Below are positions 3,034 to 41,358 of a DNA stretch of 64,000 nucleotides, piece after piece; position 1 is the stretch's first letter; every line of letters begins with the position of its first letter. The position numbers and the translations under genes are program-made. This DNA comes from Dehalococcoidia bacterium (GTDB lineage Bacteria; Chloroflexota; Dehalococcoidia; Lucifugimonadales; UBA3495): the NCBI GenBank assembly GCA_965249065.1, contig CBDFLG010000001.1, positions 1,414,646 to 1,478,645 of the forward strand. The letters are read 5' to 3'. Below the pieces are notes generated by a model, which saw only the letters and a program-made list of their open reading frames with translations, ran no database searches and had not been told where the DNA came from.

Positions 3034-4305
3034 TCAGTTACCGGCTTCAGTTACCGGCGCCTCGCCCAGGGCGCGGGCCACCAACTCGGCTCTCTGGCTC
3101 AGGTAGTCGTCTTCGTCCAGGCCACCCTGCTGGTAGCGCTCGTCCAGGGCCGCCAGGCTGGCAACAAGCTCGGCCCGTTGCGTCAGGAGAGTGGCATCCG
3201 GGCCGTCGGCTTGCCCTGAGCTTGTTGAAACTGGGGCCGAAGGGTCAGCCCCGGTTTCGGAAGCGGCGACGGGCCGGTAGCGGCGGGCCAGACCCAGGGT
3301 CAGGAGGGCGAGCAGGGCCGCGCCCATCGCCGCAGGAATGGCAGTCGTCCAGAAGGCGCCGCCAGACAGTGTCCGGCCCATGCGAGCCAGAACGCCGGGC
3401 TGCGGCAGCCCCTCCAGGTGAAGCTGAACGCCAGGCCCTGGGGGTATGTCACGGCCCTCCCAGGCGCGGTAAACCTTCTCCCCTATACCCACCGGCGGGC
3501 GCGAAGTGAGGCCGCCGATTTCGACGCTGGCCCAGCGTTCTGGAATCAGTATCTGGAAGATGCCAGCTCCTTGGGGCAGGCTGTTGCGGTAGTCGAGGCT
3601 TCCGCCGTCGTATGGGAAGGTGTAGGCAAAGTCTACGCTGTGCTCCCCGGGCGGCACCGCAGCGGTGAGCGCGAAGCCGGAACCTACGGAGATAATCTCG
3701 CCGCCGCGCAGGTTGGACTGCACCGTGACGTCCGCCGCATCGGGCGGCAGAGCGAACCGCATGAAGCTGAACATTCCAGGCCGCGCGGTTTCCAGATTGG
3801 GCCGCAGCGTCCGGTCGGTGGGGTTGGAGAAGCGCACGAACTCCGTCGCCGTCGCCAGCCGCTGCGCCACATCTATTTCTGAGATGACCATGACCTGGCG
3901 CTGCACCGTGATAATTCCCGCGTCCTCCGTGGGCTCGTGGACGGTGATGATTACTTCGCCGTCCAGTTCGTCGGCAGACAGCGACCGGCCGTAGAACACC
4001 CCGCCGTAATCGACGCTCAAATTGTAGCCGCCGCTTGCCACTCGCGGAACGTCTGCGAGGACAAAGCTGCCGTCGCGGTCGGGCTGGGTCTGGCCGGTCC
4101 CGCTGAGCGTCCCATCCGGGCCGGTTATCAGCATCAATATCACTAGGTCGCCGGGGGTGGAGGCCCCGGCGGTGCCGTTGACCACCCTGCCCCGTATCGA
4201 AAGCGTCTCTTGGGCCGGGGCCGCGCCGTTGACCACGCTGCCTTGCGCCAGAATCAGGGCGATGATCGCCGCCCCGCACAGCGCCGCCAGCATCGCCTTC
4301 TTCAT
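3034..4305 (-). CDS. exported and membrane-anchored protein of unknown function (carboxypeptidase-regulatory-like beta domain, C-terminal TM, SHOCT-like tail)
   Basis: ORF 3034-4515 trimmed to ATG 4305, where a signal peptide MKKAMLAALCGAAIIALILAQG begins. It has an IRGRVVNGT...DGSFVLADV beta-sandwich-like segment, a late TM (AFWTTAIPAAMGAALLALLTLGL), and the tail LAALDERYQQGGLDEDDYLSQRAELV. Confidence 0.7.
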   Translation of the reverse strand: MKKAMLAALCGAAIIALILAQGSVVNGAAPAQETLSIRGRVVNGTAGASTPGDLVILMLITGPDGTLSGTGQTQPDRDGSFVLADVPRVASGGYNLSVDYGGVFYGRSLSADELDGEVIITVHEPTEDAGIITVQRQVMVISEIDVAQRLATATEFVRFSNPTDRTLRPNLETARPGMFSFMRFALPPDAADVTVQSNLRGGEIISVGSGFALTAAVPPGEHSVDFAYTFPYDGGSLDYRNSLPQGAGIFQILIPERWASVEIGGLTSRPPVGIGEKVYRAWEGRDIPPGPGVQLHLEGLPQPGVLARMGRTLSGGAFWTTAIPAAMGAALLALLTLGLARRYRPVAASETGADPSAPVSTSSGQADGPDATLLTQRAELVASLAALDERYQQGGLDEDDYLSQRAELVARALGEAPVTEAGN

Positions 4306-4367
4306 CGCCAGCGGGCGGCGGGTTAAGGAGAACCGGCTCGGGTCCTTCGGGAAGACCGGGAAGAGTG

Positions 4368-4931
4368 TCACCAGGCTTGGGCCTGTCCTGGTTTCTCTGA
4401 AACCGGGGCCGGAGGGCTGTCGGCTTCTCCGCCCATCGGCGGGCCGATGGTCAGGGAAGCCCCGCAGTTCGGGCAGGAGCATGGCGCGCCGCCCGGCGGA
4501 ACGGGGGCGCCGCATTCCGGGCAGGCGGGGTTTTCGCCAAGAAGTCGGGACGGCCTGATTTCGGACCGCGCCGCCAGCACTTCCTGCTCCAGCATCAGCT
4601 CCGGTGGCGCCCCGCCGCGCTCCAGTTGCTCCCTGACCGCCATGGCCGCTTGCAGCCGGTAACCCTGCAACTGCTGGCGGTACTGCCCTTCGGGGACGTT
4701 TCCCAACTGATAGTCCAGCTCCAGCGTATCTATGGAGTCATAGATGGCGTCCAGCCCGACGCCAATTGCGTCTGAACCTTCGTCAATGGACTGAGGAGGC
4801 GCAGTCACCTCTGCGTCAGGTTCATTGCCCCGGACGAAGGAGCGCCGCAACAGTGGATAACCGGCCAGCGCCAAGCTGAAACAGGCCAGCGCCGTGCCGG
4901 TGATGATGGCGAATATCGTTTGCCCGTCCAT
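4368..4931 (-). CDS. single-TM protein with C-terminal zinc ribbon, unknown function
   Basis: N-terminal TM (IFAIITGTALACFSLALAGYPLL), the motif LELDYQLGNVPEGQYRQQL, and a terminal CPECG...CSCPNCG. It sits between ccmF and the 3034-4305 gene on the same strand. Confidence 0.7.
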   Translation of the reverse strand: MDGQTIFAIITGTALACFSLALAGYPLLRRSFVRGNEPDAEVTAPPQSIDEGSDAIGVGLDAIYDSIDTLELDYQLGNVPEGQYRQQLQGYRLQAAMAVREQLERGGAPPELMLEQEVLAARSEIRPSRLLGENPACPECGAPVPPGGAPCSCPNCGASLTIGPPMGGEADSPPAPVSEKPGQAQAW

Positions 4932-33005: not shown

Positions 33006-33827
33006 ATGTTATGGGCCTGGGCCGAAAAACGCTTCATTTTCTTCCCTGAACCCGAGATTGCCAATACGCCGGACCAGGCGGGTTTGCGATACGAGGACGT
33101 TTACCTTACGTCCTCGGACGGACTGATTTTGCACGGATGGTTTCTGCCCGGGCCCGCTGGCCTTGCGGGCCGGAGAACCCAGACTTGGCTGTGGTTTCAC
33201 GGCAACGGCGGGAACGTTGGCACTCGTGTGGGCCAACTGGAACGGGCGCATCACGTGTTGGGCGTTCACCAGTTCATCTTCGACTATCGAGGCTATGGGC
33301 GCAGCGAAGCCAAACCTACGGAACGCGGCACCTACCTGGACGCCCGCGCCGCTCTGAATTACCTGAAACAGCGGCCCGGAATAGACCCGGAACGCATTGT
33401 CTACTTCGGCCACTCGCTGGGCGCGGCGGTAGCCGTCGAGCTGGCCGAGTCGCATCCCCCATGCGGCATGGCCTTGATAGCCCCTTTCTCGTCAGCCCGG
33501 GATATGGCGAAGTTCACTCTGTCCATTCCTCTGGCGGGATGGCTGGTGCGCGGTCATTACAACTCGGTGAAGCGCATCCCCAAGGTTCGGACGCCCCTGC
33601 TGGTGCTTCATGGAGAGCTGGACGAAATGGTGCCTCACTCCCAGGGCATGAAGCTGTACCAAGCCGCCAACCGCCCCAAGCGGTTTGTAACCCTGCACGG
33701 CGCGTCCCACAACAATGTTCAGCATATCGCCGCAGATCAGATGGCCCGCGCCCTGGTGGAGTTCCGCGACGGGCTGGCTACCGGAGACGTGGCTCCCGGT
33801 TACACCCCGCTGATGATTTCGCTCTGA
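33006..33827 (+). CDS. alpha/beta hydrolase
   Basis: Nucleophile elbow GHSLGAAVA. The Asp and His regions are LHGELDEMV and GASHNN. Confidence 0.8.
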   Translation: MLWAWAEKRFIFFPEPEIANTPDQAGLRYEDVYLTSSDGLILHGWFLPGPAGLAGRRTQTWLWFHGNGGNVGTRVGQLERAHHVLGVHQFIFDYRGYGRSEAKPTERGTYLDARAALNYLKQRPGIDPERIVYFGHSLGAAVAVELAESHPPCGMALIAPFSSARDMAKFTLSIPLAGWLVRGHYNSVKRIPKVRTPLLVLHGELDEMVPHSQGMKLYQAANRPKRFVTLHGASHNNVQHIAADQMARALVEFRDGLATGDVAPGYTPLMISL

Positions 33828-34093
33828 ACGTCCAGCAACTCCACGTCGAGGCGCGACTCCTCGATGAAGTTGAGCACGGCGGACAGCATGGCGTCGGCGT
33901 GTCCCCGGTCGTTGCTCACGCAACAGACGCCCAGAGTGAGCCGCTGCCGCCGGTCGGCATCCTCCACCTCTGCGACTGCCACGTTAAAGCGGTTGCGGAT
34001 GCGGTCGGTCAGCGACCGGGCAATCTGCCGCTTTTCCTTCAGGCTGGACGCCTCCGGCAGATGCAGCGTCAGCTTGCAAACTCCGATATGCAA
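33800..34093 (-). CDS. DUF503 (YlxP-like) protein
   Basis: MHIGVCKLTLHLPEASSLKEKRQIARSL...NVAVAEV pattern, 97 aa. Confidence 0.6.
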   Translation of the reverse strand: MHIGVCKLTLHLPEASSLKEKRQIARSLTDRIRNRFNVAVAEVEDADRRQRLTLGVCCVSNDRGHADAMLSAVLNFIEESRLDVELLDVQSEIISGV

Positions 34094-34272
34094 TCGAGAC
34101 TCGCTTTCCGGACTGAATGGGCCTCGCCTGCGGCCGTTAGACAGGGGATAATATGGGCCTGCCTGACTCCCATATTGTTGACGGGATTGCAGTGGGCATT
34201 ATAGATTATACTTCTGGCCTACCCCCCATTGCTTCCTTAACCATGCCACTTGGCTAGGAGACTGGATACTCG

Positions 34273-34935
34273 ATGGTCGGCGACCCCTTCGCCCCCGATG
34301 TTTCCCGCGCGGAAGTGCCTGAGGTTGTCGTAAGCAGGCTGCCCCAGTATCTTCGCATCCTCAACCGCCTGATGGAAGACGGCATCATGGTGGTAAGTTC
34401 TCAGCAGTTGGGCGAAAAGCTCCAAGTGACGCCGGCCCAGATACGCAAAGACCTCAGCTATTTCGGGCGGTTTGGCAAGCAGGGCCGGGGCTACAGCGTC
34501 AACGACCTGCTGGAGCGGCTGCGCCAGATTCTCGGCGTCAACTCATACTGGAACGTCGCCGTGGTTGGCGTGGGCCGGTTGGGGAGGGCCATCGTAAACT
34601 ACCCCGGCTTCACCCCCGACGGTTTCCACCTAGTGGCGGCCTTTGACATCAACAGCGCCGTTATCGGCGAAGACGTGGGCGGGCTGCAGGTTCACTCCCT
34701 GGATGACTTGCGGAAGGTAGTCGCCGAACGAAATATAAGCATCGCCATCGTGGCGGTTCCTGTTTCGAACACCCAAGAGGTAGTTGACCAATTGGTAGCG
34801 TGCGGCATCCGCGCCATCCTCAACTACGCCCCCATAACCCCCCATGTCCGGGAAGGCGTGAAGATTCGCAACATCGACCCCGTGCTGTCTCTCCAGTCCA
34901 TGACCTACTACATCAACGGCTCCAACGACGACTGA
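34273..34935 (+). CDS. rex: redox-sensing transcriptional repressor Rex
   Basis: RLPQYLRILNRL...SSQQLGEKLQVTPAQIRKDLSYFG followed by a Rossmann segment VAVVGVGRLG. Confidence 0.9.
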   Translation: MVGDPFAPDVSRAEVPEVVVSRLPQYLRILNRLMEDGIMVVSSQQLGEKLQVTPAQIRKDLSYFGRFGKQGRGYSVNDLLERLRQILGVNSYWNVAVVGVGRLGRAIVNYPGFTPDGFHLVAAFDINSAVIGEDVGGLQVHSLDDLRKVVAERNISIAIVAVPVSNTQEVVDQLVACGIRAILNYAPITPHVREGVKIRNIDPVLSLQSMTYYINGSNDD

Positions 34936-35017: not shown

Positions 35018-35470
35018 TTACCCGGATGAACTGCTGACGGTCGGCGGCAACTGTCCGCCACCGGCCCTGGCGCGGCGGCGGCGCACGGTGTCGAGACGCG
35101 CCTGAGCGCGACGGAGCGACGACATAGCGCGTTCCAGTTGCACCTCAGTCGGCTGGCCGACAATGCGCTCTTGGGCGCGGCGCATCGCCTCCTGAGCCCG
35201 GGCCTCGTTGATTTCCTCGGAATGCTCGCAGGCGTCGGCCAGGATAGTGACCCGGTTGGCCAGCACTTCCATGAACCCGCCGGTAACCGCGAAATAGGTG
35301 TCCGCCCCGTTCTTGCGGATGGTCAGTTCACCGGGTTGCAGTATAGTCATCAGTGGGGCGTGGCGTGGCAGGATGCCCAACTGCCCGTCAATGCCCGGGG
35401 CAATGAGCATATCCACTTCTTCCCCATAGACCTGCCGCTCGGCAGTGGTGATTTCCAGCAGCATCGGCAT
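35018..35470 (-). CDS. atpC: F1 ATP synthase subunit epsilon
   Basis: Typical N-terminal beta sandwich (GQLGILPRHAPLMT) and position after atpD. Confidence 0.9.
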   Translation of the reverse strand: MPMLLEITTAERQVYGEEVDMLIAPGIDGQLGILPRHAPLMTILQPGELTIRKNGADTYFAVTGGFMEVLANRVTILADACEHSEEINEARAQEAMRRAQERIVGQPTEVQLERAMSSLRRAQARLDTVRRRRARAGGGQLPPTVSSSSG

Positions 35471-35476
35471 GGCGGC

Positions 35477-36901
<1,425 letters not shown>

Positions 36902-36908
36902 CTAGACG

Positions 36909-37289
36909 CTAGGCTCTCATATTCAGATACAGGGCGCGGGGGTCAATGGCAATCTCCTCATTGTCGAGGTCAAGGCTGATTTTCCACCGCTGCATCATGT
37001 CCGCCCCGATGATAAGCTCCTCAGCCAGATCATCCACAACGAAGAAGTGGTACATCAGCGGGGACCCGTCCACATCAATGTCCAGATTGATGGTTTGGTC
37101 CACGGTGAACCCTTCCCGCACGTCGGCCAGAATAAACTGCATGGGCCGGGGGGTGCCGACGATGTCCCCCAAGGGTTCCGCGATGTCCCGCCGGACGAAA
37201 GAGGCACCCGATCCGGTGTCGTACAAGACCCGCACCGTGTCGTTGCTGCGATTTCCGGTAACGGTGTACTCTTTGACAATAATTCCCAT
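36909..37289 (-). CDS. retropepsin-like (clan AA) aspartic protease domain protein
   Basis: 126 aa with VLYDTGSGASFV (the D-T-G-S catalytic motif) and ELIIGADMM. It starts 2 nt after the atpG stop, with GGAGGGG as SD. Confidence 0.7.
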   Translation of the reverse strand: MGIIVKEYTVTGNRSNDTVRVLYDTGSGASFVRRDIAEPLGDIVGTPRPMQFILADVREGFTVDQTINLDIDVDGSPLMYHFFVVDDLAEELIIGADMMQRWKISLDLDNEEIAIDPRALYLNMRA

Positions 37290-37291
37290 TT

Positions 37292-38155
37292 CTACCCCTC
37301 CAGCAGTGCCATGCCGCCCATCAGATCCAGCAGTTCGTTGGTGATGCTTTCCTGGCGCAGCTTGTTCATCACCAGGGTGAGGTCTTCGCTGAGCTGCTTG
37401 GCGTTGTCGGTGGCGTTTCGCATGGCGACCATTCGGGCCGACTGCTCGCTGGCGATGGACTCCAGCAAGGCATGGTAGACCTGCATCTCCACAAAGCGGG
37501 GCAGCAGGCTCTGAAGCACAATCAAGTTGTCTGGCTCGTAGATATAGCCTACGCGCTCGGAGCCGGTCAGTTCCGAGGGCGTTACGGGCAGCAGCCGCTC
37601 CACCACTGGCGTCTGCGACAGCGTCGAGTTGAAGCGGGTGTAGGCCACGTAGACCTCATCGGCAGTGCCTTCGGCGTAGGCGTCGATGAGGATGTGAGAA
37701 ATGGCGATTGTATCCAGCAGGTCCGGAGTCTCCCCCAAGTCGGTGAATACGGCCCGCAGATCCCGCCCGGCCCGCACCATGAAGTCCCGCCCCTTGCGTC
37801 CCACGGCGATGGCCTGCACCGGGACTTCCTGCTCTAGCATGAACTGGCCCACGCGGCGGTTGAGGTTGGCGTGCATCCCGCCGCAAAGTCCCCGGTCAGG
37901 GCTGATGACCAGCACGGCAATGCGCTCCACGGGCCGCACCTGAAGCAATGGCTGAGAGGAGGATACATCGTCGGAGGGCTGGGCCGCCAAGTGAGCGATA
38001 ACGTCCTGAATCTTCTCGGAGTAGGGCCGCCCCTGCAGAACCGAGTTCTGGGCGCGGCGCATTTTGGACGCGGCAATCAGCGACATGGCGTTGGTCACCT
38101 TGCCGGTGTTGTCCACGCTGCGGATGCGTCGTCGTATGTCTCTTACACTGGGCAT
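37292..38155 (-). CDS. atpG: F1 ATP synthase subunit gamma
   Basis: MPSVRDIRRRIRSVDNTGKVTNAMSLIAASKMRRAQ N terminus and ITNELLDLMGG C terminus. Confidence 0.95.
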   Translation of the reverse strand: MPSVRDIRRRIRSVDNTGKVTNAMSLIAASKMRRAQNSVLQGRPYSEKIQDVIAHLAAQPSDDVSSSQPLLQVRPVERIAVLVISPDRGLCGGMHANLNRRVGQFMLEQEVPVQAIAVGRKGRDFMVRAGRDLRAVFTDLGETPDLLDTIAISHILIDAYAEGTADEVYVAYTRFNSTLSQTPVVERLLPVTPSELTGSERVGYIYEPDNLIVLQSLLPRFVEMQVYHALLESIASEQSARMVAMRNATDNAKQLSEDLTLVMNKLRQESITNELLDLMGGMALLEG

Positions 38156-41259: not shown

Positions 41260-41358
41260 CTAGTCCTGTCTCGACGCGTAGATGGCGAATATCCCGCCCA
41301 GAGCGGCGGCGGAAATTCCCACTGTGGCAAGCAGTATTACGAAAATCAGGATTTCCAT
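41260..41358 (-). CDS. possible 32-codon single-TM micro-ORF between atpB and atpE
   Basis: Own translation: MEILIFVILLATVGISAAALGGIFAIYASRQD. GGGAGGGG lies 8 nt upstream. Below the ORF-track size cut-off. Confidence 0.3.
   Translation of the reverse strand: MEILIFVILLATVGISAAALGGIFAIYASRQD

Follow-up and report, generated by a model that had tools for sequence, protein, structure and literature searches.

A retropepsin-fold gene resident between atpG and atpD in the F1Fo ATP synthase operon of a Dehalococcoidia clade

In bacteria only a few retropepsin-like proteases are known, and these are poorly understood; there is no report of one inside an F1Fo operon, and our search of the literature likewise found no protease in an atp operon. 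The genome of the Dehalococcoidia bacterium considered here, from which a single stretch of 64,000 nucleotides was analysed (the window), places a small open reading frame with the hallmarks of such a protease, here called X, between the genes for the gamma and beta subunits of F1. This raises the question of whether the protease serves the ATP synthase or is merely housed by its operon, a choice that the original prediction, made from the window alone, had left between an ATP-synthase-associated factor and a passenger gene. The reading that we favour, with middling confidence, is that X is an active protease, working as a dimer, that relies on the operon for its expression and whose target is probably not the ATP synthase.

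The locus and its product

The genes and signals around X are listed below in the order of transcription.

37292..38155, minus strand: atpG (F1 gamma), the 5' coupling partner of X; open reading frame, its homologue in related loci matching Pfam ATP-synt
37295..37301, minus strand: GGAGGGG, a Shine-Dalgarno (SD)-like sequence for X within the final atpG codons (L-E-G); from the sequence
37290..37294, minus strand: atpG TAG stop and the 2-nt spacer (AA) to the X ATG; from the sequence
36909..37289, minus strand: X, a 126-aa single-lobe retropepsin-fold (clan AA) gene; open reading frame, Pfam, AlphaFold (AF2), Foldseek and dN/dS
36875..36908, minus strand: X-atpD spacer of 34 nt, with atpD's own SD (caGGAGAg); from the sequence
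35477..36874, minus strand: atpD (F1 beta), the 3' neighbour; open reading frame, 87-97% identity across 31 related loci

The operon reads as originally described: AtpZ/I-like, atpB, a 32-codon ORF, atpE, atpF, atpH, atpA, atpG, X, atpD, atpC, with X starting 2 nt past the atpG stop, GGAGGGG among the final codons of atpG and 34 nt between X and atpD. The atpG TAG occupies 37294-37292, the X ATG lies at 37289 and its stop at 36909, and the atpD ATG follows at 36874; measured from the GGAGG core, the SD of X stands 7 nt from the ATG. The AtpZ/I-like product matches Pfam ATPase_gene1, and in subunit a the Pfam ATP-synt_A domain covers residues 112-341 of 357, leaving an unusual N-terminal extension of ~110 residues.

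The predicted absence of promoter- or terminator-like sites around X was borne out by a consensus scan of 36800-37400, which was empty; X, with neither signal of its own, would therefore be transcribed within the atp mRNA. Equivalents of its SD (GGAGG or GGAAGG) stand directly 5' of X in related loci, and the atpG stop and X start are 2-6 nt apart in 24 of the 29 related loci that could be scored. An SD in the last atpG codons with an ATG 2-6 nt beyond the stop points to translational coupling of X to gamma, and the conserved spacing thus supports the co-transcription and coupling that had been proposed. Related loci also conserve 'tcaggaga' 5' of atpD, with an X-atpD spacer of typically 33-42 nt; having its own SD, atpD should be translated independently of X. 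A gamma-X fusion made by frameshift or readthrough was ruled out because the atpG-X spacing is 2, 3, 4 or 6 nt, so that the reading-frame relation is not conserved.

The lower GC content of X, first judged by eye, is real by calculation, at 56.7% against 62.2% for the window and 62.5-65.4% for the neighbouring genes. It arises at codon positions 1 and 2 (GC2 is 0.346), whereas GC3, at 0.756, falls inside the atp-gene range of 0.74-0.86. This native GC3, together with the clade-wide residence described below, rules out a recent horizontal acquisition.

Four parts of the protein carry its assignment and its likely mode of action.

37206..37229, minus strand: catalytic motif V-L-Y-D24-T-G-S-G, residues 21-28; alignment A1, in which D24 and G26 never vary
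37032..37178, minus strand: variable central region, residues 38-86, predicted to form the flap beta-hairpin and cleft strands; column entropy and AF2
36993..37019, minus strand: second clan AA signature E-L-I-I-G95-A-D-M-M, residues 91-99, with a single helix after it; alignment A2 and AF2
36912..36947, minus strand: conserved C-terminal I-D-P-R-A-L-Y-L-(NM)-R-A, residues 115-126, the presumed dimer-interface terminus; alignment A1

Read directly from the open reading frame, the two motifs on which the assignment was first based are present, VLYDTGSGASFV at residues 21-32 and ELIIGADMM at residues 91-99, and profile, fold and motif tests all agree that X is a single-lobe retropepsin-type protein of clan AA. 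Among Pfam models, X clears the curated cutoff of Peptidase_A2B (PF12384) alone (33.8 bits vs 21.2, E 3.2e-8, X residues 15-103); TIGR03698 clan_AA_DTGF gave 16.8 bits (E 0.0064), below its cutoff of 57.35, and an exact-sequence look-up of the protein returned no identical record. The AF2 model, calculated from a 116-sequence alignment, has a pLDDT of 91.5 and a pTM of 0.83 (an alignment of 25 close homologs gave a pLDDT of 47.5 and was discarded), with strands at 44-53, 60-73 and 76-85, a helix at 96-101 and lower pLDDT at the hairpin tip. Foldseek with this model returned 117 PDB matches at E<=1e-3, of which the best 50 are all Ddi1 RVP domains or retroviral proteases; the best match is Ddi1 RVP (TMq 0.71), and Ddi1 and the XMRV, HIV and EIAV proteases are matched at probability 1.00. 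By sequence, a PDB search found the Ty3 protease best (7.8e-6), with Ddi1 at E 4e-4. Inspection found no signal peptide or TM segment.

Conservation is concentrated where a working retropepsin would need it. All of the 120 homolog clusters listed of 188 retain the Asp, and 114 of them have D-[TS]-G; G95 is the only invariant column in the deep 116-sequence alignment A2, and D116, P117, R118, L120, Y121 and R125 are invariant in alignment A1. Across 119 family members, mean column entropy is 1.45 bits for residues 38-86 vs 0.72 for 1-37 and 0.53 for 87-126. Conservation of the N- and C-terminal segments fits a dimer interface of the customary terminal-strand type, in which, by analogy with retropepsin architecture, residues 115-126 may take part. 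X would then be a cytosolic single-lobe aspartic protease, made from the atp mRNA with its translation coupled to gamma. Judged by fold and motif conservation, two chains probably pair through these terminal segments, Asp24 in the D-T-G loop of each would contribute to a shared catalytic dyad, and the variable flap hairpin and cleft strands (38-86) would set the choice of substrate.

Residence and turnover at the atpG-atpD junction

X has 188 homologs at E<=1e-3, the 120 listed being 64-82% identical, and its dN/dS is 0.03-0.14 in 12 pairs, similar to atpG and atpC and tighter than atpH, with dS saturated in several pairs; so many homologs under such constraint place the open reading frame far beyond chance. 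A synteny survey of atpG-atpD junctions found the order atpG-X-atpD in 31 of the 31 GTDB species loci with a homolog, and relatives at 40-50% identity are likewise located between atpG and atpD. Every copy found in a genome scan with two peptide patterns, which could miss diverged copies at other sites, sits at this junction, duplicates included. X is thus a genuine selected gene, long-resident at atpG-atpD in one Dehalococcoidia (Chloroflexota) soil clade. The passenger as first envisaged, a recent insertion absent from relatives, does not hold up, since X is an ancient, vertically inherited resident, is held by strong purifying selection and has a native composition; what survives of that option is that a passenger fits the data better than an ATP-synthase factor does.

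The junction-only location and a constraint as tight as that of atpG also fit a dedicated role in the ATP synthase, in which X, as a protease or a chaperone-like protein produced together with gamma, would process, assemble, regulate or control the quality of an F1Fo subunit. The fixed position between gamma and beta, extending to more distant relatives, the conserved tight coupling, purifying selection equal to that on atpG and the retention of duplicates at the junction all favour such a role, and the N-terminal extension of subunit a could be a substrate; in yeast, Atp23 processes Atp6. A precedent exists in RimB of Pseudomonas, a cytosolic protease of the retropepsin kind that is encoded in the rimABK operon and targets proteins encoded with it (PMC11957791). 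If X did act on the ATP synthase, it would be an F1Fo maturation or regulatory factor of a class new to bacteria. We nevertheless regard this role as doubtful. A fixed position is expected in any case of a gene without mobility of its own, and three further lines of evidence, from operons that lack X, from the divergence of its alleles and from a second occupant of the same slot, count against a dedicated partner.

An unbiased AtpG-anchored scan found atpG abutting atpD (43-101 nt) in L039-L046. In a Kimura-distance neighbour-joining tree of AtpG and AtpD, two proteins only because AtpA is missing in three taxa, the X-less operons L039-41, L042, L044 and L045/46 are nested among X-bearing clades with bootstrap values of 98, 92 and 99; these operons were recovered as metagenome fragments, and the genomes concerned could carry X at another place. 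Subunit lengths are equal in the nested X-less and X-bearing operons. A co-variation screen limited to the five F1 subunits detected no column or indel that follows X in beta, gamma, delta or epsilon; alpha gave a single trivial L->I/V. The proposal of an ATP-synthase-associated factor therefore gained nothing from this comparison, as X-less operons are closely nested and the F1 residues and indels do not track X. The Arg-rich C-terminal tail of epsilon was also considered as an X-specific substrate and rejected, because the tail is of a like kind in sister operons without X.

The alleles of X turn over independently of the genes on either side. In three pairs of operons, AtpG and AtpD together are 99.3%, 98.9% and 97.8% identical where X is 55.6%, 59.7% and 50.8% identical, and overall the identity of X is decoupled from that of its flanks (Spearman 0.36); in the pair L009/L010 the dS of X is 0.83 against 0.06-0.29 in the flanking genes. 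Alleles that differ by 40-50% where gamma and beta are 97-99% identical are hard to reconcile with a conserved partner surface. In another clade the same atpG-atpD junction is filled by an unrelated, winged-helix-like gene of ~90 aa, here called Y.

Tandem paralogs of X occur in 6 of the 31 genomes and belong to old lineages, so that heterodimers would be possible. One locus holds a broken copy (L031), and two hold stop-loss copies that read into atpD (L024 and L029). The paralogs and allele swaps, like the degenerate sub-lineage and the other lodgers of the operon described below, are features that a reader of the window alone could not see.

X thus behaves as a long-resident, swappable and dispensable lodger and not as a part of the enzyme. 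On this comparative evidence X would be an accessory cassette that exploits the operon for steady expression, and would have no co-evolved part in the ATP synthase, whether as subunit, maturation factor or assembly factor; loss, duplication, exchange between near-identical operons and catalytic decay all appear to leave F1 visibly unchanged. Its substrate is more likely something other than the ATP synthase. Strong selection can evidently preserve such a lodger over a very long period even though it stays dispensable and exchangeable.

Other lodgers, phage links and alternative roles

X is not the only guest of this operon. Besides Y, 3 of the 31 loci have defence systems in the interval from atpD to atpC, and an essential operon of textbook conservation can therefore harbour a protease cassette, a winged-helix-like gene and defence systems as long-term lodgers. 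Relatives of X outside atp operons are numerous: the X profile recovers 954 representatives of stand-alone prokaryotic clan AA proteins of ~125 aa at E<=1e-3, and the nearest of the non-atp relatives are located in unrelated neighbourhoods. One relative is a phage prohead protease in a Mu-like head module, which extends this family of small stand-alone prokaryotic retropepsins to phage head-maturation proteases, and Foldseek with the X model returns viral proteases as well. X itself has no match in PHROGs, and tblastn of X and of its long-form relative P0209 against GenBank phages gave none, which lends no support to a direct phage origin.

These links raise the prospect, quite unlikely in our view, that X is a constitutive single-gene counter-measure against phages or mobile elements, parked in a core operon of high expression, its alleles moving from species to species by homologous recombination through the conserved flanks. 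The fast-changing flap and cleft would then track the proteins of invaders, and in one version X would cleave the retropepsin-type head-maturation proteases of Mu-like phages, or heterodimerise with and poison them. Cassette-like allele turnover is compatible with such a role, as are a variable substrate region on a conserved core, defence systems one junction further on, the Mu-like prohead-protease relative and a weak similarity to the PADLOC model PDC-M08B. In X that similarity amounts to 22.3 bits (E 2.4e-5), with atp genes and not component A next to it; the scores of out-group members range over 15-24 bits, none of the genes beside them matches PADLOC, and nothing on PDC-M08 was found in the literature. 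Were X defence-related, core operons would act as harbours for defence genes.

A further view, which we consider very unlikely, makes X chiefly a pseudo-protease or adaptor, a module that binds peptides without catalysis, whose cleft clamps an extended peptide and whose DTG is kept for structural reasons. It draws on a degenerate sub-lineage with the motif YD[AP][DEH][SA]RDS, in which T and G are lost and the C-terminal tail is changed with the open reading frame intact. This form is the sole gene at the junction in two loci (L029 and L118), a hint that binding and not cleavage may be what is selected, and the first of two in a third (L036). At 0.32, its dN/dS remains under 1, and DAG, DPG and DTR variants occur in 6 of the 120 homolog clusters listed of 188. 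Against this stand the near-universal catalytic motif in those clusters, a constraint on the degenerate lineage that is 3-10 times weaker than on canonical X, resembling relaxation after loss, or a shift, of function, and the pairing of the degenerate copy in L036 with an intact DTG copy. The last and barely credible option is a selfish or neutral passenger of no benefit to the host, retained because clean removal from an essential operon is difficult: several losses of X without visible consequence, the broken and stop-loss copies and the other foreign genes in the operon would suit it, but the dN/dS of X and catalytic and terminal motifs that stay invariant past dS saturation demand selection on the protein, atpD does not depend on X for its translation, and clean X-less junctions exist, which makes deletion feasible.

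Comparison with known systems

The closest structural likeness is to the RVP domain of eukaryotic Ddi1 (PDB 5yq8, 5ys4, 3s8i and 4z2z), which shares with X a single-lobe fold of ~125 aa, a D-[ST]-G-A/S loop and a second motif, I-I-G-x-D-M-(L/M), followed by a helix. X differs in being bacterial, operon-embedded and stand-alone, with no UBL or UBA domains, and the sequence identity is 16-23%. The proteases of Ty3 and other LTR retrotransposons and of retroviruses (Peptidase_A2B, RVP and RVP_2; MEROPS family A2) are likewise single lobes of the homodimer type. X, in contrast, is free-standing, belongs to no polyprotein and has no gag, RT or integrase context; its Peptidase_A2B match reflects homology at the level of the clan, and X is not a retroelement.

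Other genes that encode no subunit are co-transcribed with those of F1Fo, as X is expected to be, among them atpI/atpZ and the urf6/atpX of alpha-proteobacteria. The known accessory atp genes encode small membrane proteins and are placed first in the operon, 5' of the rest, or among its Fo genes; none is known to be a protease or to be sited between gamma and beta.

Among bacterial proteases RimB is a functional precedent, being small and encoded within the operon of a housekeeping machine (PMC11957791). X has no RimB-family Pfam match at E<=10 and no rimK (ATP-grasp) neighbour, and no substrate link between X and its co-encoded proteins could be shown. APRc of Rickettsia (PMC4140852) and RloA-C of Pseudomonas (PMC12239564) resemble X as single-lobe clan AA proteases with DTG or DSG motifs; they are reported to be membrane-embedded or secreted, in contrast to X, in which inspection found neither kind of targeting segment, and their genomic contexts are unrelated. 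The stand-alone clan AA proteins of ~125 aa (TIGR03698, PDC-M08B) lie outside atp operons and are otherwise much like X, sharing its length, its motifs and a start of the form 'MG.I.K...G..G' at ~40% identity.

The X gene and its product

The earlier reading of a 126-aa open reading frame, X, between atpG and atpD is borne out exactly, and the operon order AtpZ/I-like, atpB, a 32-codon ORF, atpE, atpF, atpH, atpA, atpG, X, atpD, atpC is correct, with the first gene matching Pfam ATPase_gene1. The features at the junction are:

36909..37289, minus strand: X, 126 aa, read from the sequence
37292..38155, minus strand: atpG, 3' end CTG GAG GGG TAG
37301-37295, minus strand: GGAGGGG, within the last atpG codons

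The atpG TAG stop and the X ATG at 37289 are separated by two bases, and 34 nt, which include atpD's own AGGAGA, lie between the X stop at 36909 and the atpD ATG at 36874; the 2-nt gap, the GGAGGGG inside the terminal atpG codons and the 34-nt spacer had all been noted earlier. Scanning for consensus sites gave no promoter-like or terminator-like hit in the vicinity of X, in agreement with the original observation. On this sequence evidence X is predicted to be co-transcribed with the atp genes and is placed for translational coupling to the gamma subunit gene. The coupling arrangement is conserved among related loci, with a spacing of 2-6 nt between the atpG stop and the X start in 24 of 29 scorable loci and an X-atpD spacer of typically 33-42 nt. 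The low GC content suspected by eye is real (56.7%, against 62.5-65.4% in the neighbours and 62.2% in the window), and the deficit falls on codon positions 1 and 2. As GC3 of X (0.756) falls within the range of the atp genes (0.74-0.86), composition shows no sign of recent import.

The two motifs from which a retropepsin-type, single-lobe clan AA protein had been predicted are present at residues 21-32 (VLYDTGSGASFV, with the DTG) and 91-99 (ELIIGADMM). The profile search proposed at that time places X above the curated cutoff of Pfam Peptidase_A2B (33.8 against 21.2 bits), with four further clan AA families matching below their cutoffs and NCBIfam clan_AA_DTGF scoring far under its own. The top sequence matches among solved structures are Ty3 protease (7.8e-6) and Ddi1-like RVP domains (4e-4). 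AlphaFold on 25 close homologs gave an unusable model (pLDDT 47.5); a second run on a 116-sequence alignment, with identity down to ~25%, gave a pLDDT of 91.5 and a pTM of 0.83. The top 50 Foldseek matches of this model in the PDB are all either RVP domains of Ddi1 or proteases of retroviruses (TMq up to 0.71, probability 1.00); in a viral library the matches were aspartic proteases of caulimoviruses, retroviruses and phages. D24 and G26 do not vary in the X family alignment. The Asp is present in 120/120 homolog clusters and D-[TS]-G in 114/120, and G95 of the IIGAD motif is the sole invariant column of the deep alignment (116 sequences). Profile, structure and motifs together therefore identify X as a clan AA protein of single-lobe retropepsin fold whose catalytic signature is intact, as predicted. 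Conservation is high in the catalytic core and at both termini (mean entropy 0.72 bits for residues 1-37 and 0.53 for residues 87-126), and residues 38-86, at 1.45 bits, vary about twice as much. From retropepsin architecture we take this variable region to be the flap hairpin and the substrate-contacting strands of the cleft.

By fold and motif, X most resembles the RVP domains of Ddi1 and the proteases of LTR retroelements and retroviruses, without the domain context of the former or the polyprotein context of the latter. The known accessory genes of atp operons (atpI/atpZ type) encode small membrane proteins. Among bacterial enzymes the nearest functional analogue is RimB, a cytosolic, operon-embedded retropepsin-like protease (PMC11957791), although X falls outside the RimB family; APRc (PMC4140852) and RloA-C (PMC12239564) are reported to be membrane-bound or secreted. 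Within the prokaryotic retropepsin-like proteins X represents a subfamily that is new and as yet unnamed. The literature searched contains no description of an atp operon with a protease gene, and the clade-wide residence of X between atpG and atpD, with cassette-like dynamics, is unreported.

Distribution of X and operons without it

A word-indexed search with X gave 188 homologs; among the 120 matches listed, lengths are 122-134 aa (nearly all 122-126) and identities 64-82%. Scanning one genome per GTDB species with two peptide patterns as query returned 31 X loci, every one titled as a Dehalococcoidia MAG, in which AtpA and AtpD are 83-97% identical to those of the window and AtpH down to 49%. 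The order atpG-X-atpD holds in all 31, loci that were themselves found by searching with X. Further out, four representative proteins with 40-50% identity (P0122, P0123, P0125, P0128) also lie at the atpG-atpD junction, and four with about 40% (P0126, P0127, P0129, P0130) lie in unrelated neighbourhoods, each different. An exhaustive profile search reveals a broad family of stand-alone proteins of ~125 aa, with 954 representatives at E<=1e-3.

X is under strong purifying selection, with its retropepsin fold and catalytic loop intact. Across 12 pairs (Nei-Gojobori, dS being saturated in several) its dN/dS is 0.03-0.14, about the level of atpG (0.03-0.10) and atpC; atpH is less constrained (0.07-0.22). 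The clade-wide site, the coupling and the low dN/dS together indicate a functional gene that has been a long-term resident of the atpG-atpD site throughout the radiation of a clade.

Because the 31/31 figure is biased by its query, a metagenome scan was anchored on AtpG instead, giving 80 loci with AtpG 56-88% identical. X is present in just one, L038, the closest to the window. In eight others (L039-L046, all contig fragments; AtpG 66-77% identical, AtpD about 85-90% where complete) X is absent and atpG abuts atpD with a gap of 43-101 nt. In a distance-based, neighbour-joining tree of AtpG+AtpD the X-less operons interleave among X-bearing ones: X-less L039-41 are sister to the main X-bearing clade (bootstrap 98/100), a second X-bearing clade lies outside that pair (92/100), and X-less L044 is sister to X-bearing L014/L016 (99/100). 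This topology calls for three or more losses of X, or else three or more gains. A screen limited to the F1 subunits, made column by column, compared 33 X-bearing with 5-7 X-less operons and found no residue or indel tracking X in gamma, beta, epsilon or delta, and one trivial L->I/V in alpha. The nested X-less operons and the lack of X-linked differences suggest that close relatives run, without X, an F1 that is indistinguishable at sequence level.

The X slot as a variable site

Six of the 31 genomes carry a tandem X pair at the junction (L003, L005, L008, L009, L010, L022). The X tree contains old paralog lineages inside the main clade, and two-copy genomes hold one X from each of two lineages, in an order that varies by genome. 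The two copies in L003 are separated by the decayed remnant of a second atpD start (4376-4452, atagccgtaggcagaatcgtacaagtaa), so the duplicated unit took in the X-atpD spacer and the 5' end of atpD. Divergence of X and of its flanks is largely uncoupled (Spearman only 0.36, 496 pairs), and between L009 and L010 dS is 0.83 in X against 0.06-0.29 in the flanking genes.

Identity of flanking proteins and of X in four pairs of loci
L009/L036: AtpG+AtpD 99.3%, best X 55.6%
L023/L025: AtpG+AtpD 98.9%, best X 59.7%
L022/L029: AtpG+AtpD 97.8%, best X 50.8%
L017/L022: AtpG+AtpD 97.2%, best X 93.5%

This reflects either the sorting of several ancient paralogs or allele exchange via conserved flanks; in both cases the slot is variable and the surrounding operon is not. 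One conserved sub-lineage reads YD[AP][DEH][SA]RDS at the motif, with T and G lost, and has an altered C-terminal tail. Its dN/dS of 0.32 is relaxed, yet below 1. Such a copy is the sole junction gene in L029 and L118, and in L036 it is the first of two, the second retaining DTG. In L031 (4001-4356) X is interrupted by a stop after 52 codons and homology resumes in a different frame; either this copy is a pseudogene or the break is an error of long-read assembly. In L024 (4001-4450, 149 aa) and L029 (4001-4414, 137 aa) the usual stop is lost, and X ends at or overlaps the atpD start.

We hold at about even confidence, from these sequence comparisons, that X is an accessory cassette rather than a co-evolved component of the enzyme, with a substrate that probably lies outside F1. 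A factor dedicated to processing, assembling or regulating ATP synthase would fit the fixed site, the coupling to atpG and the RimB precedent (PMC11957791), but the nested X-less operons, the lack of any X-tracking F1 residue or indel, and a slot that varies in paralogs, divergent alleles and degenerate copies within an operon that does not, make it unlikely. A defence-type role is improbable. The similarity of X to the defence-candidate component PDC-M08B is weak (22 bits), is found likewise for out-group proteins, and is no more than clan-level resemblance. That X is mainly a non-catalytic binding protein, as the degenerate sub-lineage might suggest, is quite improbable, and a selfish or neutral passenger, contradicted by the dN/dS of X, is scarcely credible. 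As an accessory cassette, X would use the operon for steady expression, a role consistent with the comparative data. It would dimerise via its conserved termini, the two Asp24 residues would form the catalytic dyad, and the variable flap and cleft would determine substrate choice; heterodimers may arise where paralogs lie in tandem.

Other genes in the operon and in the wider family

Another clade, whose AtpG is about 60% identical to that of the window, has an atpG-atpD gap of ~310 nt in 17-19 loci, filled by a conserved ORF unrelated to X, with the motif MPISS.DF.KSDR...LDEL...LEYGGK..SK.IDGV.YYRY. The ORF has no match in Pfam, PHROG or PADLOC, and its product looks winged-helix-like; its family comprises 15 clusters, and one source calls a member an ArsR-family regulator. 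Genes at the two junctions include:

L059:3877-4152; L075:3875-4150; L062:3876-4139: 86-93 aa junction ORF (about 14 more loci)
L072:3824-4144 and 4148-4423: two copies of the same ORF
L002:5858-7416; L012:5863-7391: PRTase and DprA/SLOG pair, atpD-atpC junction (PADLOC PsyrT/PsyrA, ShosT/ShosA matches)
L003:6301-7989: NsnB/AriA-like AAA_15/AAA_21 ATPase and a 154-aa protein, atpD-atpC junction

From this ORF and the atpD-atpC inserts it follows that the atp operon of these bacteria tolerates foreign genes at intergenic junctions. The inserts in L002, L012 and L003 are recognisable anti-phage defence systems.

In the long-form relatives P0180 and P0209 the retropepsin-like domain is fused to a C-terminus of head-maturation-protease/scaffold type (phrog_328). 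P0209 (L122:5001-6242) lies between Mu F and the gpT capsid gene of a Mu-like head module (Portal_Mu, Mu_F, P0209, ..., gpT), a position that points to an aspartic, retropepsin-type prohead protease; the wider X family would thus include phage prohead proteases. Sequenced GenBank phages gave no match to X or P0209. P0189 is likewise a long-form relative, with a Mu-like protease/scaffold C-terminus.

Further features of the window operon are:

41260-41358, minus strand: 32-codon ORF between atpB and atpE, MEILIFVILLATVGISAAALGGIFAIYASRQD, one predicted TM helix
41425-42498, minus strand: subunit a (AtpB), 357 aa, Pfam ATP-synt_A over residues 112-341 only
35018-35470, minus strand: epsilon

Six related loci extend far enough on their left side to include 10 or more residues of the 32-codon ORF (L002, L004, L006, L020, L024, L025), and in these it is 89-100% conserved; it probably encodes a genuine micro-protein belonging to Fo. 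Since the ATP-synt_A match begins at residue 112, subunit a has an N-terminal extension of ~110 residues, which begins with hydrophobic residues and includes a charged stretch rich in His and Glu. An Arg-rich epsilon tail, considered as an X-specific feature, was rejected, as it occurs in X-bearing and X-less operons alike; epsilon throughout the super-clade has an RRRR motif followed by a Gly/Pro/Ser-rich tail, with ...GQLPPSVSSSG common to the main clade. Downstream synteny (window 33800-34935) is kept in the related contigs L036 and L118, with a Rex-like redox regulator (Put_DNA-bind_N + CoA_binding), DUF503 and an alpha/beta hydrolase.
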